A DNA stretch of 38,404 bases from an uncultured Dehalococcoidales bacterium (GTDB lineage: Bacteria > Chloroflexota > Dehalococcoidia > Dehalococcoidales > GCA-2688105), in the NCBI GenBank assembly GCA_964558705.1, contig CAZLFC010000004.1:1-38404 (forward strand), read 5' to 3'. The notes under the pieces were generated by a model. The model saw only the letters and a program-made list of their open reading frames with translations. It had not been told where the DNA came from and did not search any database. Positions 13,972 through 30,202 of the stretch are shown here, piece after piece (position 1 is the stretch's first letter; each line of letters opens with the position of its first letter). Both the position numbers and the translations under genes were made by a program.

Positions 13972-13995
13972 CAGAGGCCTCCTCTCAGCTACATC

Positions 13996-14661
13996 CTAGG
14001 CAATATCATCCAACGTAAGCCAGCCCCTTCTTAGCGCCTCCAATATGGCTTCAGTTCTCGAGCCCACATCTATTTTGCGGAAAATATTAGCCAGGTGAGC
14101 CTGCACGGTGCGCCTGCTCAGGAATAGTTTGTCAGCGATATCCTGGTTACTCATACCCCTCCCCGCCAATTTGAGTATCTCCATCTCCCGCTCGCTGAGG
14201 TCCTGAGCTTGCACTGACTCGCCTGACTCCTGCCCAGCACCAGCGAAACGATTGAAAACCTTGCGGGCGATGACCGGATGGAGTACCGACTCGCCGGCAT
14301 ATACGGCATGAATGGCATTGACCAACTCCTTGCCGCTAACATTCTTCAGCAGGTAACCGGCCGCCCCTGCCTCTAAGAGAGCCCAGATATACTGGTCGTT
14401 GTCATAGGCAGTAAGGATTAAAACGGCTGTAGCCGGGTAGTGTGCTTTAATCTGCCTTGTAGCCTCAATACCATTGACCTTGGGCATAGCGATATCTATT
14501 AAAGCAACGTGAGGGTGAAGCCTGGTTACCAGCTCAACAGCTTCTTCCCCGTCACTAGCTTCCCCAACAACCTCTATGTCCCGCTCCCGTTTGATGAGAT
14601 TGCAGGTACCTTCACGGAACAGGACATGATCATCAGCGAGAATAACCTTAATCTTGTTCAT
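13996..14661 (-). CDS. NarL/LuxR-family response regulator
   Basis: REC domain (ILADDH...IDIAMP...KP-like) plus a C-terminal LuxR HTH (LSEREMEILKLAGRGMSNQDIADKLFLSRRTVQAH). Confidence 0.9.
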   Translation of the reverse strand: MNKIKVILADDHVLFREGTCNLIKRERDIEVVGEASDGEEAVELVTRLHPHVALIDIAMPKVNGIEATRQIKAHYPATAVLILTAYDNDQYIWALLEAGAAGYLLKNVSGKELVNAIHAVYAGESVLHPVIARKVFNRFAGAGQESGESVQAQDLSEREMEILKLAGRGMSNQDIADKLFLSRRTVQAHLANIFRKIDVGSRTEAILEALRRGWLTLDDIA

Positions 14662-15319: not shown

Positions 15320-15877
15320 ATGGCTGGTAAAAACGGAGGACGGCTAACCAGAGCAGAGGCAGAGGGGGTATCCTACAAACTTCCCGATGGTGAACAGAGT
15401 AAGGTTTTTGAAGAAGGCTTCCGCCCCCTCCGCGATGAGCCCGGTGCGTTACTGGAAATGCTGTACCTGGCACAGGAGAGCTTCGGTTGCCTCCCCAAAG
15501 CAGTCCTGGGCTGGATAGCCCAGGAGGCCAAGATACCCCGCAGTGAGGTCTTCTCAACAGCAACCTTTTATTCCCTCTTCTCCCTGAAGCCGGAAGCCAA
15601 GTATATCATCAGAGCCTGTGATTGCCTGTCCTGCTATCTTAACGGAGGTAAAGTGGCATTAGCCGCTATTCGTGATGCGGCAGGCATACCGGAAGGAAAA
15701 ACGGCAAGTGAGGACAGTCTTTTTTCACTTGAGACTGTCTCCTGCCTCGGCCTTTGCGACCAATCACCGGCAATAATGATTAACCAGGATAGATACGGGC
15801 TACTTGATGCTGACAAAGCTCGCCACATTATTGCCAGTCTGCGAAGCAAAGAATCCATTAAGGAAGGCAACCAATGA
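15320..15877 (+). CDS. nuoE: NuoE/HndA-like [2Fe-2S] subunit (FdsG-like) of a NAD-linked formate dehydrogenase
   Basis: Thioredoxin-like 2Fe-2S Cys pattern (CDCLSC ... CLGLCDQSP). An aggag RBS is present. The stop overlaps the next ATG (ATGA). Confidence 0.8.
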   Translation: MAGKNGGRLTRAEAEGVSYKLPDGEQSKVFEEGFRPLRDEPGALLEMLYLAQESFGCLPKAVLGWIAQEAKIPRSEVFSTATFYSLFSLKPEAKYIIRACDCLSCYLNGGKVALAAIRDAAGIPEGKTASEDSLFSLETVSCLGLCDQSPAIMINQDRYGLLDADKARHIIASLRSKESIKEGNQ

Positions 15878-17193
15878 ACGAGAAAGTAGCTTACAAAAAC
15901 ATTGGCAAACTGGATTCGGAAACCCTTCAAGGCTACCTGGGCAGTGGTGGCTACAAAGTGCTGCGGAAACTGGTGAAGGAGAAAACTCCGTCTCAAGTAA
16001 TTGAGGAAATTAAGCAGAGCGGTCTCCGCGGCTGTGGCGGCGCCGGTTTTCCCACCGGGGTTAAATGGGAATTCGTGGCGCAGACCACCGCGACACCGAA
16101 ATATGTAGTCTGCAACGCCGATGAAGGGGAACCGGGCACATTTAAAGATAGAGCCATCTTAGAACAGGACCCCCATCTGCTCATTGAAGGAATGGCTACC
16201 GCCGGCTTTGCCGTTGGTGCCGAGACCGGCTATATCTATGTAAGAGGAGAATATACCCTGGCCTGGAAGCACTTAAGGCAGGCTATCGACGAAGCCTATG
16301 AGAATAATATCCTGGGCGACGGTATATTCGGCAGCCGGGTGAATTTCCATATAAAGTTGCGCCGCGGTGCCGGCAGTTACATCTGCGGCGAGGAAACCGC
16401 GTTAATCGAGTCGCTGGAAGGCAAGAGAGGCATACCCCGCCTCAGACCCCCCTACCCCACCACCCACGGTTTATGGGGACAGCCCACTCTGGTCAACAAT
16501 GTGGAGACACTGGCGCGGGTCCCCGTCATTATGGAAAAAGGAGCCGGGTGGTACCAGGACCTGGGCAGAGGCGAGACTGCCGGAACCAAATTGTACTGTA
16601 TCAGCGGCCACATCCTTAAACCCGGTGTCTATGAGCTGCCTATGGGAGTAACCGCCCGCGAACTGATTTACGAGCATGGCGGCGGCATCAAGAATAATAA
16701 AAAGTTGAAGGCATTCAGCCCCGGCGGTATATCCAGCGGCATATTACCAGCCGAAATGGTTGACATCTCCCTGGACTACGCCCCCCTGGCTGAGGCCGGT
16801 TCTATGCTTGGCTCCGGGGCAATGATAGTAATGGATGAAACAACCTGTATGGTAGATATGGTATTACGTGCCTCACACTTCTTCGTTCACGAGTGCTGCG
16901 GCGAGTGCACCCCGTGTCGCGTCGGCAACATCAGAATAGAGCGACTCCTGACCAACATCGCCAACGGACAAGGCTCCTGGGACGATGTTCAGCTACTGCA
17001 AGAACTCGGTGAGCGCATGCGCATCGACTCTCGCTGCGGTCTGGGACAATCGGCAGCTCTTCCCTTCTTGAGCTCCCTGACTCACTTTGAAGAGGAATTC
17101 CGCGCTCATGTAGAGGCGAAGAAATGCCCCGCCGGAGTTTGCTCAATCGCACCTGTGGCTGCCCCGTATCAGCCGGAGGAGGTGACCATATGA
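15874..17193 (+). CDS. nuoF: NuoF-like NAD(H)/FMN/[4Fe-4S] subunit (FdsB-like)
   Basis: GLRGCGGAGFPTGVKW, an FMN/NADH site (NADEGEPGTFKDR) and a 4Fe-4S motif (ECCGECTPCR). An ATGA overlap occurs at both ends. Confidence 0.88.
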   Translation: MNEKVAYKNIGKLDSETLQGYLGSGGYKVLRKLVKEKTPSQVIEEIKQSGLRGCGGAGFPTGVKWEFVAQTTATPKYVVCNADEGEPGTFKDRAILEQDPHLLIEGMATAGFAVGAETGYIYVRGEYTLAWKHLRQAIDEAYENNILGDGIFGSRVNFHIKLRRGAGSYICGEETALIESLEGKRGIPRLRPPYPTTHGLWGQPTLVNNVETLARVPVIMEKGAGWYQDLGRGETAGTKLYCISGHILKPGVYELPMGVTARELIYEHGGGIKNNKKLKAFSPGGISSGILPAEMVDISLDYAPLAEAGSMLGSGAMIVMDETTCMVDMVLRASHFFVHECCGECTPCRVGNIRIERLLTNIANGQGSWDDVQLLQELGERMRIDSRCGLGQSAALPFLSSLTHFEEEFRAHVEAKKCPAGVCSIAPVAAPYQPEEVTI

Positions 17194-20138
17194 CAATGGC
17201 AACTCAAGAGAAAACCATAACCATCAGTATCGACAATCAGCCGGTAAAGGCGGCACCGGGAGCCAGTATCCTGGAAGCCGCCCAGGCAGCGGGAATCCAT
17301 ATTCCTACCCTGTGTCACCACCCCAAACTCTCAGTGGTAGGTTCCTGCCGGGTCTGTATGGTAGCCGTGGAAGGGATGAAAGGGGTGGTACCATCCTGCG
17401 CCACTCCCATCCGCGAGAGGATGGTAATCAAAACCGATACTCCGGAAGTCCTGGCCGCCAGGAAGATGGCGGTAGAACTGTTATTGTCGACTCACCCCTT
17501 GAATTGTAATGAATGCGATTCCAGCGGGAAGTGCGAGCTTCAGGCACTGGCTACCGAACTGGGCATTGAAACTCCCAGATTCTCCCGCGATGAAGAACGA
17601 CAGCCCATAGACGACAGGCATCCCTTCATTCTCTACGACCCCAATAAGTGCATCCTGTGCAGTCGTTGTGTCCGTGCCTGCCGTGAGATAGCCGTCAATG
17701 ATGTCTTGGGCATCAGCAACAGAGGCGGCGGGTCAATCATCTCCACCTTTTTCGAGGAGTCAATGGTCAGCGTCGGCTGTCTGTCCTGCGGCGAATGCGT
17801 CAGTGTTTGTCCTACCGCCGCCCTGACCGAAAAGCCGGGCTTCTCCATTGAGCCATCCACCGAGGCTAAAATAACCAAGACCACCTGCCCCTGGTGCGGG
17901 GTCGGCTGCACCATCGAACTTCACACCGAAGGCAACAAGGTGGTCAAGGTTACCTCACCACCCGACGCCCCCACCAATAAAGGCAGCCTCTGCGTCAAAG
18001 GTCGCTACGGCTACGAGTTTATCAATCACCCCAGCCGGCTCACCAAGCCGCTGATTAGAGTGAAACCTAAAGATGGCGGGGCGTACCACGAAGAAACCTG
18101 GCAGACCGATTTCCGCGAAGCCAGCTGGGATGAGGCGCTGGAACTGGTAGCCAAACGACTGTCCGAAATCAAGGACAAGTTTGGCAGCGAAAGCCTGGCC
18201 GGAATCAGCTCCGCCAAGTGCACCAATGAAGACAACTATCTGATGCAGAGATTCGTGCGGGAAATAATGGGCAATAACAATATTGACCATTGTGCCCGAC
18301 TTTGCCACGCTTCCACCGTGGTAGGCGCCATCGCCGCCTTTGGCAGCGGCGCCATGAGCAACTCCATTGATGATATTGCTATGGCTGATTCTCTCCTGAT
18401 AATCGGTTCCAATACAACCGAGTGCCATCCGGTTATCGGCAGCGTTGTTAAGCAGTCCGTCAGGTTCAGGGGAACGAAACTTATCGTGGCTGACCCCCGC
18501 CACATCCAGCTCACCGACCACGCCGCCATACACCTGCGTCACAAACCGGGGACCGATGTCGCCCTGCTCAACGGACTGATGCATGTCATCATCAAAGAGG
18601 GTCTGGCCAACGAAACCTTTATTAAAGAGCGCACCGAAGGCTTTGACGAACTAAACCAGGTAGTTGAAAACTACACGCCGGAGGTCGTGGAGAAAATAAG
18701 CGGCGTTGCCCAGGAAGACCTTATCAAAGCCGCCCGCGTATTCGGTCAAGCCGAAAAAGCATGCATTATTTACAGCATGGGCATAACGCAGCATACTACC
18801 GGCACCGACAATGTTAAAAGCGTGGCCAACCTCCTGCTTCTCACCGGCAACATCGGCCGGGAAGGTACCGGCTTCAGCCCGCTACGCGGACAGAATAATG
18901 TCCAGGGGGCTTGCGACCTGGGAGCATTACCGAATGTCCTCCCCGGCTACCAGGCGGTTAACAATCCGGAAAGCAGAGGAAAATTTGAAGCAGCCTGGCA
19001 CTGCCAGCTCGGTGATACTCCGGGAATCACCATGACGGAGATGCTTCCGGCCGCCCACGAAGGCAAGATAAAGGCAATGTACATCGTGGGGGAGAACCCT
19101 CTGCTCAGTGAACCTAACACCGAGCACGCCAGAGAATCGTTGAAAAGGCTGAATTTCCTGGTAGTCCAGGATATCTTCCCCTCGGAAACGGTCTGGCTGG
19201 CTGACGTTGTCCTGCCGGCGGCATGCTTTGCCGAGAAAGAAGGCACCTTCACCAGCACCGACCGGCGCGTCCAGAGAGTGCGGCAAGCGGTCACACCGCC
19301 GGGCGAAGCCCGCGATGACTGGGAGATAACCTGCCAGCTGGCGGAAAAGATGGGACACGACTTCAGCTACACCAGTGCCGAACAGATAATGGATGAAATC
19401 GCTGCTCTGACACCTATCTACGGCGGTGTCCACTATAACCGCCTGGACGGTACCGGCTTGCAGTGGCCCTGCCTTGACGATAACCACCCGGGCACTCCCT
19501 TCCTGCACAAGGACAAGTTCAGCCGTGGACTGGGCAAGTTCCACGCTTTAGAGTACATCCCTCCCGATGAGTCGATTTCTAAAGAGTTTCCCATGGTACT
19601 TACCACCGGACGAGTCCTGGAGCACTGGCACACCGGAACAATGAGTCGGCGCGCCGCTCCATTGCAGGAACTCTACCCGAAAGGTTTAGCCGAAATCCAT
19701 CCCAAGGATGCTGAGCGACTGGGCGTCTGGGAAGGTGAGATGATAACCATCACCTCAGACAGGGGCAAGATAGAAGCCAAGGCTCACATCACGGAAAAAT
19801 CAGCCCCCGGTCTTGTTTTCATGTCCTTCCACTGGCATGAAGCGCCCGCCAATATCCTCACCAACCCGGCGGTTGACCCGGTGGCCAAGATTCCCGAATA
19901 CAAGGTGTGTGCCGTCAAACCGGTGCTCGCGGTGCTTGACAGAGCGATACAGGATAATGCCTTCCTGGCCCAGTTAGCCGAGAACCCCGCGGAGGCGCTC
20001 AAGAGCTATGACCTCACCGCCGAAGAGAAGGCGGCCCTGGCTACCGGTGACATCCGCAGAATAAAGTCATGGGTCGGCGAACTCGACGAGAGAGTGGAGT
20101 CCTGGCTTATTGCCCGGCTGGCACAAGAAAAATGGTAA
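17190..20138 (+). CDS. fdhF: Formate dehydrogenase alpha subunit with a NuoG-like FeS N-terminus, a Mo/W-bisPGD catalytic domain (Cys type) and a roughly 70-aa C-terminal extension
   Basis: The start is set at ATG 17190 (ggaggaggtg RBS, ATGA overlap with the nuoF stop). There is an N-terminal 2Fe-2S plus 4Fe-4S Cys clusters. The active-site region HCARLCHASTV has a TGC Cys codon at 18303..18305 where selenoproteins have TGA. RGQNNVQGACDLG is also present. The extra C-terminal domain spans 19924..20138. Confidence 0.88.
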   Translation: MTMATQEKTITISIDNQPVKAAPGASILEAAQAAGIHIPTLCHHPKLSVVGSCRVCMVAVEGMKGVVPSCATPIRERMVIKTDTPEVLAARKMAVELLLSTHPLNCNECDSSGKCELQALATELGIETPRFSRDEERQPIDDRHPFILYDPNKCILCSRCVRACREIAVNDVLGISNRGGGSIISTFFEESMVSVGCLSCGECVSVCPTAALTEKPGFSIEPSTEAKITKTTCPWCGVGCTIELHTEGNKVVKVTSPPDAPTNKGSLCVKGRYGYEFINHPSRLTKPLIRVKPKDGGAYHEETWQTDFREASWDEALELVAKRLSEIKDKFGSESLAGISSAKCTNEDNYLMQRFVREIMGNNNIDHCARLCHASTVVGAIAAFGSGAMSNSIDDIAMADSLLIIGSNTTECHPVIGSVVKQSVRFRGTKLIVADPRHIQLTDHAAIHLRHKPGTDVALLNGLMHVIIKEGLANETFIKERTEGFDELNQVVENYTPEVVEKISGVAQEDLIKAARVFGQAEKACIIYSMGITQHTTGTDNVKSVANLLLLTGNIGREGTGFSPLRGQNNVQGACDLGALPNVLPGYQAVNNPESRGKFEAAWHCQLGDTPGITMTEMLPAAHEGKIKAMYIVGENPLLSEPNTEHARESLKRLNFLVVQDIFPSETVWLADVVLPAACFAEKEGTFTSTDRRVQRVRQAVTPPGEARDDWEITCQLAEKMGHDFSYTSAEQIMDEIAALTPIYGGVHYNRLDGTGLQWPCLDDNHPGTPFLHKDKFSRGLGKFHALEYIPPDESISKEFPMVLTTGRVLEHWHTGTMSRRAAPLQELYPKGLAEIHPKDAERLGVWEGEMITITSDRGKIEAKAHITEKSAPGLVFMSFHWHEAPANILTNPAVDPVAKIPEYKVCAVKPVLAVLDRAIQDNAFLAQLAENPAEALKSYDLTAEEKAALATGDIRRIKSWVGELDERVESWLIARLAQEKW

Positions 20139-20310: not shown

Positions 20311-21432
20311 ATGTTAGACAGAGTACCCTCATTGAAGATGAACCAGACCCAGTCCATGCAAATGCGGCAGGAGCAAAGACAAATCCTCCGCATGGAACAA
20401 GCCAACCTGCTGGAAATGCCCGAGGACGACTTTCACAAGCTTATCAGCGAGATAGAGCGTGAGCCCCTTTTTCAGAAGTTATACGGTAAGGAAAAACTAA
20501 TCCGCTACCAGAGACTGCCCAGAACCGATATGTCCTCCAGTTTCTACGCAATCAAAGAAGAGGTGGTAGCCGATAAAGGTTCGCTGGATGTTGAATCCCT
20601 TCTGCAGAATAAGGAGCACATTGTCCGGCTAATACAGCAGCTGGGCATGGAGACATTCAATAAGTATTTTTTGTTCCCGGAATCAGGGATGACTCCTGAA
20701 GAAATCGCTAGAGAATGCGACCTGGACATACCGGAGGTCCAGAAGATAAATAGCCTTATTGATGATTTCTCGGTCAGGAGTGAATTCTATCATCCGTCGA
20801 ATATTACCTCAGACAGCATCCGCTACTCCAAAATCGCCTCGGTAGATAAAGATGACAAGGGATTTATTATCGGCTATTTTTCAGCGCCTCTCGCCCGGGG
20901 TCGTTATGCCATTGATTATGAAAAATTTGAAGAGTTAAAGACGGCTGGTAAACTCGCTGACACTGAAATCAAGGAAGCCAGGCAGCTATTCAAAAAACTG
21001 GAACTGATTAATAGCCGCAAGGACACCATAACTCAAATCCTGCAAAATATCATTGACAAGCAGGCACTATACCTAGAGTCCGGCAACTCTAAGTCACTCT
21101 TACCTCTCAGCCAAAAGGAACTGGCTAAAAATATCGAGGTCGCTCCCAGTTCAATAAGTCGTGCTATTAGAGGCAAAAGTATCGAAACTCCCTGGGGTAA
21201 AGAAGTCCCTCTGAAAAACTTCTTCCCTAGGCCCAAGCGATTTAGAATGGAACTGCTCAGGCAACTGCTGGAAACCGACCAAGAGCTTTCCTCAGACGAG
21301 GCAATCCGCAACAAACTCCAGGAAAAATTTGGCGTAGCAATCTCACGTCGTTCGGTAGCCAACCTGAGAAAAGAGCTTAAATTCCCGGCGGTTCATAGAA
21401 GCCACCGTACCGCTGGAGGTAAATTAAAATGA
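20311..21432 (+). CDS. rpoN: Short, divergent sigma-54 (RpoN)-like factor
   Basis: Gln/Leu-rich region-I-like N-terminus (MNQTQSMQMRQEQRQILRMEQANLLEM). C-terminal HTH (QKELAKNIEVAPSSISRAIRGKSIETPWGKEVPLKNFF) and RpoN-box-like ISRRSVANLRKELKFP. The start is ATG 20311 or 20338. The stop overlaps the next ATG (ATGA). Confidence 0.7.
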   Translation: MLDRVPSLKMNQTQSMQMRQEQRQILRMEQANLLEMPEDDFHKLISEIEREPLFQKLYGKEKLIRYQRLPRTDMSSSFYAIKEEVVADKGSLDVESLLQNKEHIVRLIQQLGMETFNKYFLFPESGMTPEEIARECDLDIPEVQKINSLIDDFSVRSEFYHPSNITSDSIRYSKIASVDKDDKGFIIGYFSAPLARGRYAIDYEKFEELKTAGKLADTEIKEARQLFKKLELINSRKDTITQILQNIIDKQALYLESGNSKSLLPLSQKELAKNIEVAPSSISRAIRGKSIETPWGKEVPLKNFFPRPKRFRMELLRQLLETDQELSSDEAIRNKLQEKFGVAISRRSVANLRKELKFPAVHRSHRTAGGKLK

Positions 21433-23384
21433 GCATTGTCTACACCGAGAGAGAAAAATGTACCGGGTGCCTTGCCTGTGTTCGTAACTGCCCAGCCAAG
21501 GCAATCAGAATAAGAGAGGGCAAGGCTGAGGTAATAAAGGAGCGCTGTATTGACTGCGGCAACTGTGTTCAGATATGCATGGCTAAAGCGAAACACCTAG
21601 AGAGCGACATTGGATTGGTCTGGCAGCTATTGGGACAGCAGCAGCCGATAATCGCGATGCTATCCGCCCCCTTCCCCGCCGCTTTCCCTGAAATTCGACC
21701 GGGGCAGCTGGTAGCCGCTTTGAAAAAACTGGGTTTTAGCGAGATTATGGAGGATTCCTTCGGGGCTGAACTGATCTGCGGTGAATATGCCCGTCTTTTT
21801 AAGGAAAAAGCTGATAAAAATATTATCTCATCTACCTGCCCGGCGGTAGTGTCATACATTGAGAGATTTCACCCCCAGCTACTCAATAATCTAGCACCCA
21901 TTGTCTCACCTATGATAGCCATGGGTAGAGTGATTAAGCATCGTTATAATCCACAGGCTAAGGTAGTCTTCATTAGCCCTTGCGTAGCCAAGATAGCCGA
22001 GGCTAAAGATGAGAAGGTTGCCGGCATAGTGGATGCAGTACTGACCTTTGCCGAAATTAAAGAAATGTTAGCGGCTAAAGAGATTGCCCTTGCATCTCAG
22101 GACGAAGAGCAACTCACGGGTCCCAAACCAAACCTGGGGCGTCTGGTCGCCATATCGGGTGGCTTACTCAAGGCAGCCAATCTCTCCGACGATATTCTAG
22201 CCAATGAAATTATAAATGCCTGCGGTCATGAATACACACCTCATATCCTTCGCGAGTTTTCCGAAGGCAACATCACTGCCAAACTCATCACCATGTGTTT
22301 TTGTGAAGGTTGTATTGATGGTCCGGTTATTGATAACAACCTGAGCGTCTTTAAACGAAGAGAGATAATCAGCAATTACACCTTGAGCCAGGCAGACCCT
22401 GTTCAAACCGAGAAGGACGTTCAGGTATATGCTGACATTGACCTCAGCCGTAAATTTACCAATAGAAGTGTCGACCTACCTACTCCCAGCGAAGAAGATA
22501 TTCAAAGGATTTTAGAGGAGATTGGCAAGGTAGACCCCAGCTTCCATATGAACTGCGGCGCCTGCGGCTACGGCGGCTGCCGAGAACTGGCTATTGCCGT
22601 CTGCCAGGGTCTGGCTGAGGTTAATATGTGCTGGCCATATGTACTAAATAAGTTAAGAGCCACCCAAGAAGAACTAATCCAGGCTGAGAAGCTGACCTCG
22701 CTGGGTCAACTGGCCGCCTCCATCGCCCACGAGGTCAATAACCCCCTGGCCGGCGTCCTTATCTATACCCAGTTGATGGCTAAAAAAATAAACGACGATA
22801 AGCTCGCCAAAGAGGTCGCCCTCGACTACCTGTCCAAGATGGACTCCGAACTTACCCGCAGCACCAGACTAATCCGTAACCTCCTCGACTTCGCCCGGCA
22901 GTCTACGCCTACCCTCAGAGAAGTGAATGTCAACGAGGTCATCACCCGAGCTATAGAACTGGCCGCCCACTCGGCTGAACTGGGTAACGTCCAGATGATA
23001 AAGGAGCTCGACCCTGCCCTGCCCAGGCTTATGGCCGACTTCGACCAGCTCCAGCAGGTCTGCACCAACCTCATACTGAACGCCATCCAGGCAATGCCGG
23101 AAGGAGGTATATTGACCCTCCGCACCTCAACCCCACCCGATAATGACAGCCAGCTCAAGATTGAGGTACAGGATACCGGCCTCGGCATCTCCCCGGAGAA
23201 CATGCGCCGGCTGTTCACTCCCTTCTTTACTACCAAGAAGAAAGGCAAGGGCGTAGGCCTCGGTCTGGCAGTGGCCTATGGAATTGTCCAGCGCCACAAA
23301 GGTAGAATAGAAGTTCAGAGCAGGGAAGGAGAGGGTACCACCTTCATCATCTATTTGCCGCTGCGTTATGAAGAAAAAAGATAA
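21429..23384 (+). CDS. Sensor histidine kinase with 2x[4Fe-4S] ferredoxin, an [FeFe]-hydrogenase-like H-domain, a Cx2Cx4Cx16C FeS motif, then HisKA and HATPase
   Basis: Ferredoxin motifs are CTGCLACVRNCP and CIDCGNCVQIC. The Fe_hyd_lg_C-like core is (SAPFPAAF...LGFSEIMEDSFGAEL...SSTCPAVVSYIERFHPQLL...ISPCVAKIAEA...VDAVLTFAEI...MCFCEGCIDGP). NCGACGYGGCRELAIAVCQGLAEVNMC lies at 22554..22631. The H-box is AASIAHEVNNPL, and the ATPase has G-boxes. Confidence 0.8.
   Translation: MSIVYTEREKCTGCLACVRNCPAKAIRIREGKAEVIKERCIDCGNCVQICMAKAKHLESDIGLVWQLLGQQQPIIAMLSAPFPAAFPEIRPGQLVAALKKLGFSEIMEDSFGAELICGEYARLFKEKADKNIISSTCPAVVSYIERFHPQLLNNLAPIVSPMIAMGRVIKHRYNPQAKVVFISPCVAKIAEAKDEKVAGIVDAVLTFAEIKEMLAAKEIALASQDEEQLTGPKPNLGRLVAISGGLLKAANLSDDILANEIINACGHEYTPHILREFSEGNITAKLITMCFCEGCIDGPVIDNNLSVFKRREIISNYTLSQADPVQTEKDVQVYADIDLSRKFTNRSVDLPTPSEEDIQRILEEIGKVDPSFHMNCGACGYGGCRELAIAVCQGLAEVNMCWPYVLNKLRATQEELIQAEKLTSLGQLAASIAHEVNNPLAGVLIYTQLMAKKINDDKLAKEVALDYLSKMDSELTRSTRLIRNLLDFARQSTPTLREVNVNEVITRAIELAAHSAELGNVQMIKELDPALPRLMADFDQLQQVCTNLILNAIQAMPEGGILTLRTSTPPDNDSQLKIEVQDTGLGISPENMRRLFTPFFTTKKKGKGVGLGLAVAYGIVQRHKGRIEVQSREGEGTTFIIYLPLRYEEKR
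22674..23311. repeat. Copy A of a 638-bp perfect direct repeat (DHp plus most of the CA domain of the hydrogenase-like HK)
   Basis: Line-by-line comparison shows 22674..23311 is identical to 23960..24597 (offset 1286 bp). Similarity continues with mismatches to about 23370/24656. Confidence 0.9.
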
Positions 23385-23416
23385 GACGACAATCAGCTAA
23401 TTAAGCTAAGGTGTTA

Positions 23417-24679
23417 ATGGAACAGTCTATAACAATTAAACCAACCCTAAAAAACACCCTGCAACGCTGGAAAGAAATTGTGGTAGCCAAAGCTAACGAA
23501 TGGGCACAGCGAAGCGACACCAGAGGCATACGAAGCCCTCATTTCTGGATAATCACGGTTTTAATAGCCTTCGGCGCGCTGAATTACTATCTGGACCAGA
23601 CTCCCCTGATTAACCTGCCACTGTTTAACCACAGCTTTTTCACCAGTGTCCACGACGTACATCGGACATTATTCTTCATTCCCATAATCTACGCTGCTCT
23701 GGTATTCAGGGTACGGGGAAGCCTGATTGCTTCACTCGCCTTCCTCTGCGTGGTGCTACCACGCGCTTTGCTATTTTCCCCTTACCCCGACCCGTTACTT
23801 AGACCTATTCTATTTGTCATCTTTGCCGCCATTATCAGTACACTTATGGCGTCACACCTTAATCAAGTCGAAAAGGAAAGAAGCGATCGTGTCAAGCTGA
23901 GCGAAGCTTACCAGAAACTTAGCGAATATCACCAGCGCCTGAAAGAAAGCCAGGAACAGCTAATCCAGGCTGAGAAGCTGACCTCGCTGGGTCAACTGGC
24001 CGCCTCCATCGCCCACGAGGTCAATAACCCCCTGGCCGGCGTCCTTATCTATACCCAGTTGATGGCTAAAAAAATAAACGACGATAAGCTCGCCAAAGAG
24101 GTCGCCCTCGACTACCTGTCCAAGATGGACTCCGAACTTACCCGCAGCACCAGACTAATCCGTAACCTCCTCGACTTCGCCCGGCAGTCTACGCCTACCC
24201 TCAGAGAAGTGAATGTCAACGAGGTCATCACCCGAGCTATAGAACTGGCCGCCCACTCGGCTGAACTGGGTAACGTCCAGATGATAAAGGAGCTCGACCC
24301 TGCCCTGCCCAGGCTTATGGCCGACTTCGACCAGCTCCAGCAGGTCTGCACCAACCTCATACTGAACGCCATCCAGGCAATGCCGGAAGGAGGTATATTG
24401 ACCCTCCGCACCTCAACCCCACCCGATAATGACAGCCAGCTCAAGATTGAGGTACAGGATACCGGCCTCGGCATCTCCCCGGAGAACATGCGCCGGCTGT
24501 TCACTCCCTTCTTTACTACCAAGAAGAAAGGCAAGGGCGTAGGCCTCGGTCTGGCAGTGGCCTATGGAATTGTCCAGCGCCACAAAGGTAGAATAGAGGT
24601 ACAAAGCAGGGAAGGAGAGGGTACCACCTTCATTATCTATTTGCCGCTGCGTTATGAAAAACATGAAGAAAAAGATTAA
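23417..24679 (+). CDS. Membrane sensor histidine kinase (DUF4118-like 4-TM sensor, HisKA, HATPase)
   Basis: ATG 23417 (taaggtg RBS); the track start is GTG 23411. The hydrophobic N-terminus is homologous to the N-terminus of the 12019..13971 kinase. The transmitter is identical to that of the preceding kinase. Confidence 0.8.
   Translation: MEQSITIKPTLKNTLQRWKEIVVAKANEWAQRSDTRGIRSPHFWIITVLIAFGALNYYLDQTPLINLPLFNHSFFTSVHDVHRTLFFIPIIYAALVFRVRGSLIASLAFLCVVLPRALLFSPYPDPLLRPILFVIFAAIISTLMASHLNQVEKERSDRVKLSEAYQKLSEYHQRLKESQEQLIQAEKLTSLGQLAASIAHEVNNPLAGVLIYTQLMAKKINDDKLAKEVALDYLSKMDSELTRSTRLIRNLLDFARQSTPTLREVNVNEVITRAIELAAHSAELGNVQMIKELDPALPRLMADFDQLQQVCTNLILNAIQAMPEGGILTLRTSTPPDNDSQLKIEVQDTGLGISPENMRRLFTPFFTTKKKGKGVGLGLAVAYGIVQRHKGRIEVQSREGEGTTFIIYLPLRYEKHEEKD
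23960..24597. repeat. Copy B of the 638-bp perfect direct repeat
   Basis: See copy A. The antisense track ORFs 22826..23248 and 24112..24534 translate identically, which is consistent. Confidence 0.9.
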
Positions 24680-26006
24680 AATTCTTGTCGTTGATGATGA
24701 AGCCATCATCCGCGAGTCACTCCGTGACTGGCTAAGCGACACCGGATACGAAGTCCTTGTCGCCGAGAACGGCCTCCAGGGTCTGGGAATTATTGAGAAG
24801 GAGAGGCCGGGTATTGCCATTGTTGATCTGGTAATGCCTGGAATGGACGGGATTGAATTACTGAAGAGAGCCAAGGAAATTTCTCCTAACACCGACATAA
24901 TCATCATCACTGCCTACGCCAGTATCCCCACAGCTATTGCCGCCATAAGGTCCGGCGCCTATGACTACATTGAGAAGCCCTTCTGCCCGGAAAAGGTAGA
25001 GCTATTAATTGAGAAACTGATGGAGCATCAACAACTCATCGAGGAGAATATTTCCCTGCACCAGAAACTGGAGGAGCGTTACCGGTTCGAAAATATCATT
25101 GCCAAGAGTCCCAGGATGCAGCAGATAATCGAGGTGATTAAAGTCGTCGCCAAGAGTAATGCCACGGTGTTGATTACCGGCGAAAGCGGCACCGGGAAGG
25201 AACTGGTCGCACGAGCCGTCCACTCCCAGAGCTACCGCAAGGATAAGACATTTGTTGCCGTTAGTTGTGCTGCCCTGCCCGAAACCCTCCTCGAAAGCGA
25301 GCTGTTCGGGCATGAGAGAGGCTCTTTTACCGGTGCTCACGTCCAACGGAAAGGAAAATTTGAAGCTGCCAACCGGGGCAGTCTCTTCCTGGATGAGGTT
25401 GGCGAGATGAGTGCCAATATTCAGGTTCACCTGCTCAGGGTACTGGAAGAAAAAGAGTTCACCAGGGTTGGCGGGAATGAGCTAATCAAGGTCGATGTCA
25501 GAGTCATCTCAGCGACCAATAAAGATATGAAACAGGCGATAGCCAACGGGCAATTCCGTGAAGACCTTTACTACCGACTTAATGTGGTTACTATCGAATT
25601 GCCTCCCTTGAGAGAGCGAAAAGAAGACATTCCTCTCTTAGCCGAGCATTTCCTGAAAAAGTTCGCCGTGGAAAATCAAAAAGAGATTACCGGCTTTTCT
25701 CCTAAGGCTAATGATTTTCTGCTGAACTATGATTGGCCGGGTAACGTCCGGGAACTGGAAAATGCTATTGAAAGGGCAGTTATCCTGGCCAAAGATAATT
25801 ATATTGAGGTTGCCGACCTGCCCCAGGAAAGCCTGACAAAGACTCACTCGTCTGTACCCGGTGAAAGCCTTGAAAAGATTGAGAAAAATCACATCCAGAA
25901 CACACTCAAAGAAACCGACGGCAACTTAAGTAAAGCCGCCAAAATCCTGGGGATTTCCCGGGTAACTCTTTACAATAAAATTAAATTATATGATTTGAGC
26001 AAATAG
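24654..26006 (+). CDS. NtrC-family sigma-54-dependent response regulator (REC, AAA+ and Fis-type HTH)
   Basis: REC (ILVVDDE..VDLVMPGMDG..KPF), Walker A GESGTGKE and a GAFTGA-type loop (GSFTGA). Also ESELFGHE, R-finger and sensor II regions, and a C-terminal HTH (AAKILGISRVTLYNKI). It overlaps the HK stop. An alternative ATG lies at 24663. Confidence 0.9.
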   Translation: MKNMKKKIKILVVDDEAIIRESLRDWLSDTGYEVLVAENGLQGLGIIEKERPGIAIVDLVMPGMDGIELLKRAKEISPNTDIIIITAYASIPTAIAAIRSGAYDYIEKPFCPEKVELLIEKLMEHQQLIEENISLHQKLEERYRFENIIAKSPRMQQIIEVIKVVAKSNATVLITGESGTGKELVARAVHSQSYRKDKTFVAVSCAALPETLLESELFGHERGSFTGAHVQRKGKFEAANRGSLFLDEVGEMSANIQVHLLRVLEEKEFTRVGGNELIKVDVRVISATNKDMKQAIANGQFREDLYYRLNVVTIELPPLRERKEDIPLLAEHFLKKFAVENQKEITGFSPKANDFLLNYDWPGNVRELENAIERAVILAKDNYIEVADLPQESLTKTHSSVPGESLEKIEKNHIQNTLKETDGNLSKAAKILGISRVTLYNKIKLYDLSK

Positions 26007-26016
26007 ATAAGATGAT

Positions 26017-26040
26017 AACTGATTAAATCTTTTACAATCA
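26017..26040 (+). promoter_or_regulatory. Candidate upstream activator site (imperfect dyad TGATT-N11-AATCA), copy 1
   Basis: aactgattaaatcttttacaatca starts 83 nt upstream of the -24 GG. It matches 28358..28381 at 21/24, and that element sits at 82 nt from its own -24 GG. Confidence 0.35.
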
Positions 26041-26063
26041 AGTCTCCATTAAAGCAGAAACTC

Positions 26064-26098
26064 AGGCTATCCTGGCAATTCAGGATAGCCTTCTCTTT
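26064..26098 (+). terminator. Hairpin plus T-tract after the ntrC-like gene, abutting the sigma-54 promoter
   Basis: aggctatcctg-gcaatt-caggatagcct is an 11-bp perfect stem followed by tctctttt. Its arms are conserved in the paralogous hairpin at 28403..28432. Confidence 0.55.
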
Positions 26099-26114
26099 TG
26101 GCAAGATAATTGCT
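26099..26114 (+). promoter_or_regulatory. Sigma-54 (-24/-12) promoter P1
   Basis: TGGCAAGATAATTGCT has GG at 26100-26101 and GC at 26112-26113 (exact GG-N10-GC, TGGCA-N6-TTGC). It lies 26 nt upstream of ATG 26139, with ggaggtg between them. Confidence 0.75.
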
Positions 26115-26138
26115 CTCAAACAGCGCGGAGGTGATAAG

Positions 26139-28334
26139 ATGAAACCTATATTGATAGTAGAAGATGAGGATATCATGAGAGAGTCCCTGCAGGACTGGCT
26201 GACTGACGTCGGCTATAAAGTGGAGACCGCCGAGGAGGGAGAGAAAGCCCTGGAAGCCATCGATGAGAAGGACTTCGGCATTGTTATCCTCGACCTGAAG
26301 TTACCGGGTAAAGACGGCCTCGAGGTGCTTAGAGAAGCTAAGGCGAAAAGACCCCAGCTTAAGGGTATCATTATTACCGCTTACCCTTCAGTCCAAACAG
26401 CTATAGACGCCATGAAGGAGGGAGCCGTAGATTACCTGCCCAAGCCCTTCGACCTCAATGAACTGGAAAAATTGGTCCGGGAGACCCTGGGGCCAATCCA
26501 GGTGGAGATAAAACCAAAGAAGGCTGCCGGAAAAGCCAAGGCTGAACCTGCCGAAATCGAGGAAGTTATCGATGAGGTAACCGGGAAGGTACACCTGCCT
26601 CCCTGTCAGATAGCCTGTCCCATCGGAGAGCCGATTCAGCGCACCAATGCGATGATTTCACACCTGCCCCTTGACACCGAGAAGGCTATCCCTCAGATAA
26701 CAAAAATAGGCGATATAATTTATGAGAAGAATCCTCTATTCACAATATGCAGCTATATCTGCGGGCTTTGTGAAAAAGAATGCAACTACAAAGACCACAC
26801 GGGAGCGATAAGAAGAAAGATGCTTAAACGGTTCCTCACCGATTACTACCTGCCCCATCTGGAAACCAAGCCCCCCTTCCCCCTCCCTACCAGGGAAAAA
26901 GTTGCCGTAATTGGCGGTGGCCCCGCGGGGTTAATGTCCGCCTATATGTTAAGTAAAGACGGCTACCGGGTGACTATCCTGGAAAAAAGTCTCGAATTAG
27001 GCGGAGCCCTGAGATACATTCCTCAATACCGCCTTCCGAAGGATATTGTCGATTCCACTTTAAACAACCTGGTAAGAATTGCCCATATTGATGTCAGATT
27101 CGGAGTAAGCATGGGCAGTGGCGAGAAAACCCTGGATGACCTCAGGAATGAAGGTTGCCAAGCCGTATTCATCGCCACCGGCACTCCAGCTCCCCGACCG
27201 CTCACCTTTGAAGGCAAACCGGTACCGGGAGCCGACCTGGAAGGAGTTGCGTTCGGGTTATATCTTCTCATCGACGTAAACCAGAGCAAGGTCTCCCATC
27301 AGCTATTACGCCGGCTTTTCGGTGATAAGAGAGTAATCGTGGTAGGCGGCGGCAATGTAGCCTTCGATGCCGCCAGAACCGCCCGGCGGCTTGGCGGAGA
27401 TGTTACTCTTGTCTGCCTCGAAAATGAGAATAAGTCCTCCAAGGATGGAATTCCTGCCGATGTTGAGGAGATAAAAGGTGCCCGTGAAGAAGGCATCAAA
27501 ATATGCTACAGCCGGGGTGTAGAAGAGATAATCGGCAAGGATGGCAAGTTCACCAAAATAAAATGTCCCCGCTGCACCTCAGTTTTCGACGAAAAAGGAT
27601 TCAATCCTAAATTTGACCGAAGTGATTTTATATACCTTGAGGGCGACGTGTTATTGACAACCATAGGACAGGGTCCGGAGCATTCGTTCTTCCAGCAGGA
27701 AGGCTTACTTAATGAGCGAGGCAGATCTGATACCGACCCGCTTACCCTTATGAGCAATCGCCAAGAAGGAGTCTTCATCGGTGGTGATGTGAGGCGACTG
27801 GGCTTTGCTGCCGAAGCGATGAGAGACGGCATAGTAGCCGCCGAGTCTATAGACCGTTACCTGAAGGGTGAGGAACTCAAGGAAGGCCGGGAAAAGCAGT
27901 TTGAAAGCGCGGCTATCCCCACGCTCATGGAGTACAAGCCTCAACCTGAAGCAGAATGGGTACTGCTGGAAGAGAGGCTTAACTTTGAACTGTTTGAAAA
28001 AGGCTTCACCCTGGAGGAAGCAATAGAAGAAGCGACAAGATGCCTGTATTGCGGCCCGTGCAAGAGCTGCAAAGCATGCGTCGTCCTCGAGCTGCAACCT
28101 GAGATACCCAAAATTGAAGTCAATCAGGATATATGCAGTGGCTGTGGCATCTGTGTAGGCTTATGCAGCTATGATGCCATCCAGCTAAGGGCAGATAACG
28201 GCAAGGCAGTAGCCACCATAGACGATATTAAATGCAAGCGATGCGGAGTATGCAGTGCCGCCTGCCCGTCTAACGCCATCGGCATTGGGCACGCCACTTC
28301 TGAGAACATCATAACTGAAATCCCCGACTGGTAA
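26139..28334 (+). CDS. Receiver domain fused to a GltD/NfnB/SfrB-like FeS-flavoprotein oxidoreductase with a C-terminal 2x[4Fe-4S] ferredoxin domain
   Basis: REC spans aa 1-120 (VEDE..LDLKLPGKDG..ITAY..KPF). An FeS N-domain follows (PPCQIACP, CSYICGLCEKEC). There are two Rossmann motifs (VAVIGGGPAGL, VIVVGGGNVAFDAA). The C-terminus has CLYCGPCKSCKAC, CSGCGICVGLC and CKRCGVCSAACP. Confidence 0.8.
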   Translation: MKPILIVEDEDIMRESLQDWLTDVGYKVETAEEGEKALEAIDEKDFGIVILDLKLPGKDGLEVLREAKAKRPQLKGIIITAYPSVQTAIDAMKEGAVDYLPKPFDLNELEKLVRETLGPIQVEIKPKKAAGKAKAEPAEIEEVIDEVTGKVHLPPCQIACPIGEPIQRTNAMISHLPLDTEKAIPQITKIGDIIYEKNPLFTICSYICGLCEKECNYKDHTGAIRRKMLKRFLTDYYLPHLETKPPFPLPTREKVAVIGGGPAGLMSAYMLSKDGYRVTILEKSLELGGALRYIPQYRLPKDIVDSTLNNLVRIAHIDVRFGVSMGSGEKTLDDLRNEGCQAVFIATGTPAPRPLTFEGKPVPGADLEGVAFGLYLLIDVNQSKVSHQLLRRLFGDKRVIVVGGGNVAFDAARTARRLGGDVTLVCLENENKSSKDGIPADVEEIKGAREEGIKICYSRGVEEIIGKDGKFTKIKCPRCTSVFDEKGFNPKFDRSDFIYLEGDVLLTTIGQGPEHSFFQQEGLLNERGRSDTDPLTLMSNRQEGVFIGGDVRRLGFAAEAMRDGIVAAESIDRYLKGEELKEGREKQFESAAIPTLMEYKPQPEAEWVLLEERLNFELFEKGFTLEEAIEEATRCLYCGPCKSCKACVVLELQPEIPKIEVNQDICSGCGICVGLCSYDAIQLRADNGKAVATIDDIKCKRCGVCSAACPSNAIGIGHATSENIITEIPDW
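26142..26580. repeat. Copy A of a 439-bp near-identical direct repeat (REC domain plus linker)
   Basis: 26142..26531 is identical to 28534..28923 (390 bp, offset 2392). There are 2 mismatches (26532 and 26557) before divergence at 26581. Confidence 0.9.
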
Positions 28335-28357: not shown

Positions 28358-28381
28358 AACTGATTAAATAGTTTACAACCA
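28358..28381 (+). promoter_or_regulatory. Candidate upstream activator site, copy 2
   Basis: aactgattaaatagtttacaacca lies 82 nt upstream of the -24 GG of P2. Confidence 0.35.
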
Positions 28382-28402
28382 GGCTACTTTAAACCAAAGA
28401 CC

Positions 28403-28438
28403 AAGGCTATCCTGAATCGTCAGGATAGCCTTTTCTTA
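28403..28438 (+). terminator. Hairpin plus T-tract after the REC-GltD gene, abutting sigma-54 promoter P2
   Basis: aaggctatcctga-atcg-tcaggatagcctt is a 13-bp stem followed by ttctta. Confidence 0.55.
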
Positions 28439-28454
28439 TGGCAAGAAAATTGCC
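28439..28454 (+). promoter_or_regulatory. Sigma-54 (-24/-12) promoter P2
   Basis: TGGCAAGAAAATTGCC has GG at 28440-28441 and GC at 28452-28453. It lies 27 nt upstream of ATG 28480, the same geometry as P1. Confidence 0.75.
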
Positions 28455-28479
28455 TTTAAACAGTGTGGAGGTGATAAAA

Positions 28480-29571
28480 ATGGAAAAGCTAGCAGTCTTA
28501 AAGGAAGATAAAGTAAAAGGAGGTGAAAAAGTGAAACCTATATTGATAGTAGAAGATGAGGATATCATGAGAGAGTCCCTGCAGGACTGGCTGACTGACG
28601 TCGGCTATAAAGTGGAGACCGCCGAGGAGGGAGAGAAAGCCCTGGAAGCCATCGATGAGAAGGACTTCGGCATTGTTATCCTCGACCTGAAGTTACCGGG
28701 TAAAGACGGCCTCGAGGTGCTTAGAGAAGCTAAGGCGAAAAGACCCCAGCTTAAGGGTATCATTATTACCGCTTACCCTTCAGTCCAAACAGCTATAGAC
28801 GCCATGAAGGAGGGAGCCGTAGATTACCTGCCCAAGCCCTTCGACCTCAATGAACTGGAAAAATTGGTCCGGGAGACCCTGGGGCCAATCCAGGTGGAGA
28901 TAAAACCAAAGAAGGCTGCCGGAGAAGCCAAGGCTGAACCTGCCGAAACCGAGGAAGTTATCGATGAGGTAAAGGTTGAAGAGATTATAGCTATAGCTCC
29001 CGAGGAAGTCCCGGACCATCTGGCGCAGGGCAAGACCCAATGTGACGCCGGCCAATATCTGAAAGCTCTAAAGGAGTTTGAGGCTGTCCTCAACGCTGCC
29101 CCGGGTAGCATCGAAGCCCGAGTCTGGATACGAAAGGCAAAAGAAGCCCTAGCCAAGCCAGAGGCTGAAGCCGTAGCTGAAGGAGAGGAAGCCGCCGCAG
29201 AAGGCAAAATCAAGGAGTGCGTTTGGATGAAGATGGGTATGGTAGCCTACCGCATCTGCACCAACGACTATGACTGCACCACCTGCGATTTCGACCAGAT
29301 GATGCAGGAGAAGATGGCCAGTGGTGATGCCCCGGAACTTGAAGCTGCGCTGGAGAAATTCAAGGCGCTACCCGGTAACCAGAGGCTTTGCCGCTATGCC
29401 CTTAAGGGTGATGTATCACACCGAATTTGCAGCCGCCTGTTCCAGTGCAACGCCTGCGAATTTGGTCAAATGATGGAGGATGCTCTCCAAAGAAAGCTGG
29501 ATAAGCTGGAAGCACGCCGAGCTGCTCTGCTCAAAAAAGAGCAAAAACAAAAAGCTGAAACCGAAGCATAA
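28480..29571 (+). CDS. Response regulator: REC, TPR-like linker, twin C-x12-C-x5-C-x2-C modules and a coiled-coil tail
   Basis: The start is set at ATG 28480 (ggaggtg RBS, matching P1 geometry). An alternative GTG lies at 28531 (aaggaggtg RBS). The track ATG 28438 lies inside the -24 element. The REC is identical to that of the 26139 ORF. The C-terminus has CVWMKMGMVAYRICTNDYDCTTCDFDQMMQE and CRYALKGDVSHRICSRLFQCNACEFGQMMED. Confidence 0.75.
   Translation: MEKLAVLKEDKVKGGEKVKPILIVEDEDIMRESLQDWLTDVGYKVETAEEGEKALEAIDEKDFGIVILDLKLPGKDGLEVLREAKAKRPQLKGIIITAYPSVQTAIDAMKEGAVDYLPKPFDLNELEKLVRETLGPIQVEIKPKKAAGEAKAEPAETEEVIDEVKVEEIIAIAPEEVPDHLAQGKTQCDAGQYLKALKEFEAVLNAAPGSIEARVWIRKAKEALAKPEAEAVAEGEEAAAEGKIKECVWMKMGMVAYRICTNDYDCTTCDFDQMMQEKMASGDAPELEAALEKFKALPGNQRLCRYALKGDVSHRICSRLFQCNACEFGQMMEDALQRKLDKLEARRAALLKKEQKQKAETEA
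28534..28972. repeat. Copy B of the 439-bp REC repeat
   Basis: See copy A. Confidence 0.9.
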
Positions 29572-29704: not shown

Positions 29705-30202
29705 ATGGACACCCAAAAAAGGAGGATTCTGCTGGTAGAAGATGAAACCGTGATGCGCGAAGGCATGCGTGACTGGCTCATGGAGAATGGTTACGATGTC
29801 GAGAGCGCTGAGACCGGAGAAGAAGCCTTACAGAGAATCAGGAAGGAAGACTTTGGCATTATCGTCCTTGATTTAAAGTTACTGGGCATTGATGGACTGC
29901 AAGTATTCGAAAAAGCCAGAGAGCTTAAATCTGAAGCCAAAGGGATAATCATTACCGCCCATCCTTCGCCAGAAACGCAGGAAAAGGCACAAAAGCTGGG
30001 AGTCCTCGACTACCTGGTAAAACCTTTCAAGATTGAAAATCTGGAAAAGATAATCAGAGAGGTGCTGGGAGAACCAGAGAGAAAACTAACGGGCAAAGAA
30101 TATCTCTGGCTGGAACTTAATAACTCTTCTTATCGACTCTGCACCAAAAACTATAAATATGACTCATATGCTTTCACGCAGGGGACCTATAAGATAGATT
30201 AA
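29705..30202 (+). CDS. Stand-alone receiver protein with a short Cys-depleted remnant of the C-x12-C-x5-C-x2-C module
   Basis: aggagg RBS. The REC is paralogous to the two upstream RECs (MREGMRDWLMENGY, LDLKL, ITAH, KPF). The tail KEYLWLELNNSSYRLCTKNYKYDSYAFTQ aligns to KECVWMKMGMVAYRICTNDYDCTTCDFDQ, with 3 of 4 Cys replaced by Tyr. Confidence 0.75.
   Translation: MDTQKRRILLVEDETVMREGMRDWLMENGYDVESAETGEEALQRIRKEDFGIIVLDLKLLGIDGLQVFEKARELKSEAKGIIITAHPSPETQEKAQKLGVLDYLVKPFKIENLEKIIREVLGEPERKLTGKEYLWLELNNSSYRLCTKNYKYDSYAFTQGTYKID

Follow-up and report, generated by a model that had tools for sequence, protein, structure and literature searches.

A predicted sensory-type [FeFe]-hydrogenase module fused to a histidine kinase in a sigma-54 signalling cassette of uncultured Dehalococcoidia

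The DNA considered here is a stretch of 38,404 nucleotides (the window) from an uncultured Dehalococcoidales bacterium of the Chloroflexota (assembly GCA_964558705.1, contig CAZLFC010000004.1, positions 1 to 38,404 of the forward strand). Its principal feature is a gene for a hydrogenase-like sensor histidine kinase, which occupies positions 21429..23384 of the plus strand as a single unbroken open reading frame of 651 amino acids (aa). A GGAGG ribosome-binding site lies 11 nucleotides (nt) before the ATG, which shares bases with the stop codon of the sigma-54 gene upstream (ATGA). The neighbouring genes of the same strand encode a second, membrane-type kinase, an NtrC-type response regulator and several proteins with receiver (REC) domains. 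A first-pass annotation, made from the sequence alone, had described the gene as an [FeFe]-hydrogenase-like sensory domain joined directly to a kinase transmitter; we examined its domain structure, the residues of the putative H-cluster site, its distribution and its genomic setting. All features are on the plus strand unless stated otherwise.

The protein begins with a dicluster ferredoxin domain carrying two [4Fe-4S] motifs (residues 4-54, 21438..21590; Pfam Fer4_10 and Fer4_7) and continues into the H-domain Fe_hyd_lg_C (PF02906; residues 75-299, 21651..22325), which matched the whole Pfam profile (positions 4-245 of 245) at E 1.9e-47, so that the proposed succession of ferredoxin motifs and H-domain-like core is upheld. 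Both ferredoxin motifs had been read as CxxCxxCxxxCP; the first does end in CP, but the second is CxxCxxCxxxCM, and the eight Cys of the domain are invariant among 24 aligned homologues. Next comes a C-terminal iron-sulfur (FeS) domain (PF04060; residues 374-402, 22548..22634, E 2.6e-8) with the motif C376-x2-C379-x4-C384-x16-C401 (nt 22554-22631), a spacing that in group C and D enzymes is ascribed to a [4Fe-4S] cluster (PMC8163306, PMC13104023); a fifth Cys inside the motif, C392, is nearly invariant among the close family. The transmitter consists of a DHp domain reached by a helix from C401 (22632..22901; HisKA residues 425-491) and a HATPase_c catalytic ATP-binding (CA) domain (residues 537-646, 23037..23366, E 4.9e-28). 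The phospho-accepting His434 (nt 22728-22730) lies in the H-box HEVNNP, and the remaining kinase boxes are all present as NLILNAIQ (N), DTGLGI (G1), FTPFFTTK (F) and GVGLGL (G2). Pfam found no PAS domain anywhere in the 651 residues. The order of its matches agrees with the earlier statement that the DHp and CA domains follow the four-Cys motif at once.

Structure prediction, which had been suggested as a check, gave an AlphaFold2 model of mean pLDDT (predicted local distance difference test) 94.1, built on 68 diverse relatives. In this model one continuous helix (residues 402-453 by DSSP) follows immediately on C401, the final FeS ligand, and bears His434, so that no adaptor domain would stand between the FeS domain and the DHp domain. 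Foldseek matched the first ~430 residues to the [FeFe]-hydrogenases DdH, CbA5H, HydABC HydA and CpI with probability 1.00 and 20-24% identity (target-normalised template-modelling (TM) scores of 0.5-0.68 against DdH, CbA5H and HydABC) and the C-terminal third to the cytoplasmic domain of ZraS (9jfj; 36% identity, target-normalised TM score 0.79). The E-values, taken with the AlphaFold2 and Foldseek results, rule out a chance result. By sequence, all parts of a sensory-type [FeFe]-hydrogenase are present in the input module: two predicted accessory [4Fe-4S] clusters, an H-domain and a predicted C-terminal [4Fe-4S] domain.

Residue equivalences at the putative H-cluster site, given in the numbering of the hydrogenase CpI, were taken from phmmer and profile alignments to the solved hydrogenases 7p5h, 8a6t, 7qv7, 7q4v and 8bj7. 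The L1 motif is SSTCP (residues 134-138, nt 21828-21842) for TSCCP; T136 takes the place of the proton-relay Cys, C299, as had been read from the sequence, and C137 (codon TGC at nt 21837) corresponds to the ligand C300. In L2, SPCVAKIAEA (residues 183-192, nt 21975-22004; SPCVAK for MPCxxK), which was rightly called canonical-like, C185 (TGC at nt 21981) corresponds to C355, S183 to M353, E191 to E361 and K188 to K358, the Lys that in CpI pairs with a cyanide (CN) ligand of [2Fe]H. The L3 motif MCFCEGC (residues 289-295, nt 22293-22313) is atypical, as stated; its leading Cys, C290, aligns with M497 and is unconserved (C, H, Y or L across the family). The conserved L3 pair is C292 and C295, equivalent to C499 and C503, and its CxxC spacing represents a deletion of one residue relative to the CxxxC of catalytic enzymes (FC-E-GC against AC-PG-GC). 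Extended by one residue, the signature reads T-M-C-F-C-E-G-C for ExMxCxxGC, and the acidic residue is absent. The motifs and coordinates given in the first-pass annotation were all confirmed, apart from the ending of the second ferredoxin motif.

In the 24 full-length homologues none of the 16 cluster Cys varies, the four of the H-cluster (C137, C185, C292 and C295) included; K188, E191 and P161 (CpI P324) are likewise invariant, and the SGG motif (TGG) is kept. The C299 position is occupied by T, N, S or H in these homologues, and the M353 position by G in 22 of the 24, with Ser in this kinase. Against 130 representatives of the wider family, obtained as described below, the four H-cluster Cys are kept in at least 129 and the Cx2Cx4Cx16C motif is found in 113. 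Two positions set the Dehalococcoidia subfamily apart from these relatives: its APS motif (CpI A230-P231-S232) reads S-[A/S]-[P/S], a change found in this subfamily only (the Pro is present in 118/130 representatives), and the acidic residue before L3 (CpI E495) is N, S or T, where 125/130 relatives have E or D.

A word-indexed database search with the kinase gave more than 6000 hits, and the best 120 were all full length, 68-95% identical and of the same architecture. An organism was named in the source names of seven of these 120, each a metagenome-assembled genome (MAG) of the Dehalococcoidia or Dehalococcoidales, and eight species-representative Dehalococcoidia MAGs carry the kinase gene. 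The rarity that the first-pass annotation implied was thus overstated; the fused hydrogenase-kinase architecture is abundant in the databases, and group C1 proteins bearing HATPase_c were already known in Hydrogenedentota (PMC11406978). With the sensor module alone as query, an exhaustive search at E values under 1e-30 matched 904 clusters (formed at 50% identity); output domains and L3 motifs were counted in the representatives of the best 130. These nearest relatives are 27-47% identical over their alignments to the full-length query and have mainly PAS, histidine kinase, enhancer-binding protein and GGDEF outputs. Among them are ~33-42 kinase fusions, 14-16 direct fusions to the AAA+ domain of a sigma-54 activator, 3-5 GGDEF fusions and ~50 proteins of ~500-599 aa; a PAS domain was detected in ~30/130, consistent with the HydS type.

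The spacing of L3 follows these output domains. It is CxxC in 32/33 kinase fusions, 13/14 activator fusions and 5/5 GGDEF fusions (50/52 in total), so that the three kinds of output share the shortened L3, and CxxxC in 47/51 of the proteins of ~500-599 aa, which we assume to be the PAS-bearing HydS type. Because spacing tracks output domain, the atypical L3 is a mark of the output-fused subclade and not of this gene in particular, and the split suggests two subclades of sensory-type H-domains.

The genes around the kinase form a cassette whose composition was compared in eleven loci, the window and ten homologous loci (designated L001, L003 and so on). The conserved order is sigma-54, hydrogenase-like kinase, an optional membrane kinase, an NtrC-type regulator and a REC protein of ~340-430 aa, which in the window is called REC363. 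The core of kinase, NtrC-type regulator and REC363 is kept in 10/11 loci with protein identities of 55-83%. The sigma-54 gene lies directly upstream of the kinase in 9/11; the exceptions are L006 and L007, and the contig of L007 begins only 718 bases upstream of the kinase. An NtrC-type regulator gene follows the kinase gene or genes in ten of the eleven and is missing from L006. GltD-like FeS flavoproteins adjoin the cassette in seven loci. No electron-transfer partner gene is conserved near the kinase across the eleven loci, where the sole conserved partners are signalling proteins.

The compact, RpoN-like sigma-54 of the window (20311..21432, 373 aa) was recognised by Pfam Sigma54_DBD (residues 218-363, E 7e-23), and its residues 53-361 align by phmmer with the Aquifex RpoN structure 5ui5. 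Its NCBIfam rpoN score of 88.6 bits is under the cut-off, and Sigma54_DBD was the sole domain detected, with no Pfam match to the activator-interacting or core-binding domains. Its N-terminus is Gln-rich and resembles region I. The sigma-54-dependent response regulator of NtrC type (24654..26006) has Pfam REC, AAA+ and Fis-type helix-turn-helix domains and a GSFTGA loop at residue 223. The presence of this regulator in the operon, together with the complete set of transmitter boxes and the likeness of the transmitter to ZraS, supports the original proposal of a sensor wired straight into a two-component system.

Between the hydrogenase-like kinase and the regulator lies the gene for a membrane-type histidine kinase of 422 aa (23411..24679), whose transmitter (23950-24661) has 98.9% DNA identity over 713 bp to that of the hydrogenase-like kinase (22664-23376). 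Every difference is silent across their common stretch of 237 residues, from LIQAEK to PLRYE. For the corresponding pairs of L003 and L005 the identities are 97.8% and 87.5%, and orthologues in different genomes are ~79-82% identical in protein. Since transmitters within a genome are more alike than orthologues between genomes, this pattern indicates gene conversion or concerted evolution that would keep two sensors matched to one regulator. A second duplication of 454 bp (26127-26580 and 28519-28972), also with 98.9% DNA identity, covers the REC domains of REC363 and of a REC-GltD fusion, and the regions upstream of them (26017-26137 and 28358-28477) are 80% identical; a promoter and REC module seems to have been copied onto the oxidoreductase gene.

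In the product of that oxidoreductase gene (26139..28334), a REC domain is joined to a GltD-like NAD(P)H/FAD oxidoreductase bearing 4Fe-4S domains (Pfam; NCBIfam PRK12771-like), and an orthologue with 79% identity occurs in L003. The gene is preceded by a terminator-like hairpin (26064-26091) and then by a sigma-54 promoter-like site, TGGCAAGATAATTGCT (26099-26114), and is a candidate sigma-54 target in this window. REC363 itself (28480..29571) lies behind a second terminator-like hairpin (28403-28432) and a conserved predicted sigma-54 promoter, TGGCAAGAAAATTGCC (28439-28454). Its true start is the ATG at 28480, which follows a GGAGG site; the mechanical open reading frame start at 28438 is wrong, because the conserved terminator and promoter occupy that region. 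All ten REC363-bearing loci have a covarying hairpin with a T-run, directly followed by TTGGCAAGAAAATTGCA (a -24/-12 element) and then a GGAGG ribosome-binding site, at L001 13374, L003 14656, L004 11371, L005 13652, L007 4092, L008 8047, L009 11445, L010 4782 and L029 9796 in addition to the window, and the stem shows compensatory changes across the ten. The exact core TGGCAN6TTGC occurs four times in the window against 0.43 expected, one copy standing ahead of REC363 and a second ahead of the REC-GltD gene. The loose 16-mer, allowed two mismatches, shows no enrichment (19 sites, 18.7 expected), and the argument for a promoter rests on conserved position. From this conservation we infer promoter activity and regard REC363 as the conserved sigma-54-driven target.

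REC363 combines a REC domain with one TPR-like motif and two conserved four-Cys repeats in the region of residues ~150-363, each with the invariant pattern C-x12-C-x5-C-x2-C-[DE]-F-x-Q-x-M. Searches of its C-terminal half against Pfam and the PDB found only the TPR-like motif and a sub-threshold zf-CHY match, and no family for the Cys repeats. Its counterpart in L007 (4132-5436) is longer by a ferredoxin domain that holds two [4Fe-4S] motifs, and REC363 may be a metal- or FeS-binding output protein. A stand-alone REC protein of 165 aa follows (29705..30202; Pfam), which belongs to the same group of REC paralogues; its identity is 56% with the receiver of REC363 and 41% with the receiver of the NtrC-type regulator, compared with 24-31% for unrelated REC domains of the window. 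Within the cassette, the four REC domains share 41-56% identity, whereas comparison with the unrelated ones gives 24-36%, and on the strength of this similarity they may share kinases.

Directly upstream of the cassette (15320-20138) is an operon for NuoE-like, NuoF-like and FdhA proteins, the last a molybdopterin formate dehydrogenase with a NuoG-like N-terminus. The FdhA open reading frame overlaps nuoF by 70 nt, so that translation probably starts at an internal Met instead. Over the final ~60 residues of FdhA there is a sub-threshold match to PF14407 (leader-peptide-like; E 9.8e-5; 23 bits, cut-off 48). Formate dehydrogenase was considered as a general target of the regulation and rejected, as NuoE, NuoF and FdhA adjoin the cassette only in this window and are absent beside the ten homologous loci. 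On the minus strand, 12019-14661 encodes a GAF-PAS HisKA_3 kinase and a LuxR-type regulator, a pair that also stands beside the cassette in L001 and L002. The rest of the window (447-5346, 9129-11996 and 34622-36981) holds genes of housekeeping or anaerobe metabolism, among them those for cobalamin salvage (CobD, an aminotransferase and an ABC transporter of BtuCDF type), a TrpRS/TyrRS-class synthetase, archease, RtcB and an aldehyde:ferredoxin oxidoreductase with a polyferredoxin.

Among classified hydrogenases, those of [FeFe] groups C and D have two N-terminal clusters and the Cx2Cx4Cx16C motif, are without C299 and are altered at M353 and M497 (PMC8163306, PMC10055695). The first-pass annotation had stated that sensory groups lack the proton-relay Cys and carry a C-terminal four-Cys motif, and here the literature agrees (PMC8163306, PMC13104023). 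Its further statement that kinase-linked variants were predicted and uncharacterised is matched by HydDB, which labels group C1 'Histidine kinase-linked (putative)' (PMC5037454). By its features the kinase would fall in HydDB group C, most probably near C1, and the M353 and C299 frequencies reported for HydDB sensory sequences are consistent with its S183 and T136. Group C has been found in Chloroflexi before (bioRxiv 10.1101/2021.08.23.457424).

Two sensory-type enzymes, TmHydS of Thermotoga maritima (group C, subclass M2f) and TamHydS of Thermoanaerobacter mathranii (group D, subclass M2e), were compared with the kinase by their published descriptions, and no cluster representative for either was matched by published residue numbers among the 130 sequences. 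TmHydS shares with the kinase two N-terminal [4Fe-4S] clusters, the H-domain, which is shorter than that of CpI, and the C-terminal Cx2Cx4Cx16C motif. In both, the relay Cys is missing (A131 in TmHydS, T136 in the kinase), M353 is replaced by a small residue (G177 in TmHydS, S183 in the kinase, Gly in most of the kinase's family) and the M497 position is not Met. TmHydS differs in having a terminal PAS domain and no kinase, whereas here the FeS domain joins the DHp and CA domains directly, and the proteins of ~500-599 aa that we assume to be of its type mostly have the CxxxC form of L3 in place of CxxC. TamHydS resembles the kinase in lacking PAS, in its C-terminal motif and in the Ser that this particular kinase has at M353, but is a stand-alone protein of ~420 aa in which Asp precedes both the first and the last Cys of that motif (D378 and D403), where the kinase has N375 and M400. 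Group D membership, prompted by Ser183 and the missing PAS domain, was rejected; group D has Ser or Thr at M353, the consensus of the kinase family is Gly, and the Asp signatures of group D are absent. Both TmHydS and TamHydS incorporate [2Fe]H on artificial maturation although they are without C299, M353 and M497 (PMC10055695, PMC8163306).

Other systems share the output logic. The C1 proteins of HydDB include those of Hydrogenedentota, which bear HATPase_c in the same polypeptide, have degenerate H-cluster motifs (P1-P3 barely recognisable) and are predicted H2 sensors (PMC11406978); they belong to another phylum, and a sigma-54 cassette has not been described for them. Sensor modules of Fer4, Fe_hyd_lg_C and FeS domains have been catalogued on sigma-54 enhancer-binding proteins of Clostridiales (PMC6615313), which have the same sigma-54 logic but carry the sensor straight on the AAA+ activator, whereas in the window a kinase and a receiver are interposed to give a two-component version. 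The transmitter is most similar to those of ZraS and AtoS, which signal to sigma-54-dependent NtrC-family regulators (ZraR and AtoC), the kind of regulator that is the putative partner here, but have periplasmic or PAS inputs, and its NCBIfam scores are far under the equivalog cut-offs (AtoS 227 against 646, ZraS 194 against 479). The HoxBC/HoxJ/HoxA system of Cupriavidus necator ([NiFe] group 2b) is alike by functional analogy only, as a path from H2 sensor to histidine kinase to NtrC-family regulator. Its metal centre and fold are unrelated, its sensor and kinase are separate proteins complexed through PAS, and it is experimentally shown. HydDB terms group 2b 'Histidine kinase-linked' (PMC5037454). 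The class to which the kinase belongs has thus been predicted and noted before by bioinformatics, and no kinase-bearing member of the [FeFe] sensory class has been characterised so far; what is new here is the sigma-54 cassette, the apparent concerted evolution of the transmitters and the loss in the subfamily of APS and the L3 acidic residue.

Taken together, we think it on balance probable, by a modest measure, that the protein, a cytoplasmic sensor kinase, is a slow, non-catalytic H-cluster sensor with an H2-dependent state, which would signal through its kinase to an NtrC/sigma-54 cascade. If the organism matures the H-cluster, slow binding and heterolysis of H2 at a site without a proton-relay Cys, like those of TmHydS and TamHydS, would alter the redox or conformational state of the module. 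A change in the FeS domain could then pass mechanically to the kinase core through the long helix anchored at C401, without a PAS adaptor, since the last ligand starts the helix that continues into the His434-bearing DHp helix. His434 would autophosphorylate, and the phosphoryl group would be transferred to the NtrC-type regulator encoded downstream. This regulator and the cassette sigma-54 would activate the TGGCA-N6-TTGC promoter of REC363 and, in this organism, that of the REC-GltD-like oxidoreductase as well, and the membrane kinase with its near-identical transmitter would probably feed a second signal to the same regulator. We infer H2 as the ligand, and likewise which way the kinase responds, between which partners the phosphoryl group passes and that the promoters are active. 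The transduction step is speculative, and a redox relay through the C-terminal cluster is unlikely; redox change of that cluster, the leading idea for sensory [FeFe]-hydrogenases, has recently been questioned (PMC13104023).

Several further points weigh against an H2-binding sensor and favour one that relies on FeS clusters alone, in which the scaffold would hold four [4Fe-4S] clusters, including [4Fe-4S]H, and no [2Fe]H. Such a protein would inform the sigma-54 cascade of how reduced or oxidised the ferredoxin or NAD(P)H pool is, or of damage caused by O2 or nitric oxide, and the cascade would tune redox enzymes such as the GltD-like oxidoreductases. The Dehalococcoidia subfamily has lost the APS motif and the L3 acidic residue, both conserved among the catalytic enzymes as well as across the wider sensory clade, and the positions of C299 and M497 are variable; moreover, every hydrogenase of characterised structure has one residue more in L3. 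For the C1 proteins of Hydrogenedentota, H-cluster binding and H2 sensing were doubted by the authors who described them (PMC11406978). No hydrogenase or hydE/F/G gene lies within the 38 kb window, and the ten homologous loci showed no hydrogenase or maturase in their flanks of 8-10 kb, where L001 and L003 alone were annotated with Pfam and the other eight loci were compared solely with the cassette proteins of this window. The GltD-like FeS flavoproteins beside the cassette, one of them here with a predicted sigma-54 promoter directly upstream, would suit a redox sensor. Eukaryotic Nar1/NARFL is hydrogenase-like and without [2Fe]H, and a sensor of this kind would resemble it.

The loss of Nar1/NARFL type is only partial in the kinase, where APS, E495, C299, M353 and M497 are lost and K358 and E361 are kept. 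Absent [2Fe]H, their counterparts K188 and E191, which are known only for holding [2Fe]H, would have no obvious role, yet they are invariant in the family. Nor is the loss of the APS side chains decisive, as several CN contacts in the CpI structure are made by backbone amides and not by side chains, and TmHydS binds [2Fe]H despite comparable substitutions. We consider a sensor of FeS clusters alone possible rather than probable. More tentatively still, and with some doubt, it may be that the Dehalococcoidia subfamily gave up [2Fe]H and turned the remaining four-[4Fe-4S] scaffold into a redox or ferredoxin-pool sensor driving a dedicated sigma-54 regulon; if true, this would be a bacterial signalling counterpart of eukaryotic Nar1/NARFL.

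It is very improbable that the protein is a catalytically relevant hydrogenase with a kinase domain that is incidental or regulates its own activity. With every cluster ligand in place, and accessory clusters besides, electron transfer could be sustained, but the relay Cys is replaced throughout (T, N, S or H), characterised relatives without it have low turnover, and the conserved neighbours are signalling proteins and not electron-transfer partners. The two 98.9% identical duplications inside the window could point to trouble in the assembly. An origin of the fusion in misassembly, faulty gene calling or pseudogene decay is effectively refuted and has next to no probability, given more than 100 independent full-length homologues of the same architecture from many samples and sources, the eight species-level MAGs, an uninterrupted open reading frame with all catalytic and ligand residues conserved, and duplicates that differ by ~1% and recur as the same pairing in other genomes.

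Among the putative sensory [FeFe]-hydrogenases, neither H2 sensing nor signal transmission has so far been demonstrated for any member. TmHydS and TamHydS are without an assayable enzymatic output, whereas fusion to a kinase through a single helix offers autophosphorylation as a read-out. The cassette in addition supplies a regulator, a sigma factor and a predicted target promoter, and would make a tractable model for signalling based on [FeFe]-hydrogenases. It is widespread among uncultured Dehalococcoidia of anoxic sediments and groundwater, where H2 and redox balance govern metabolism.

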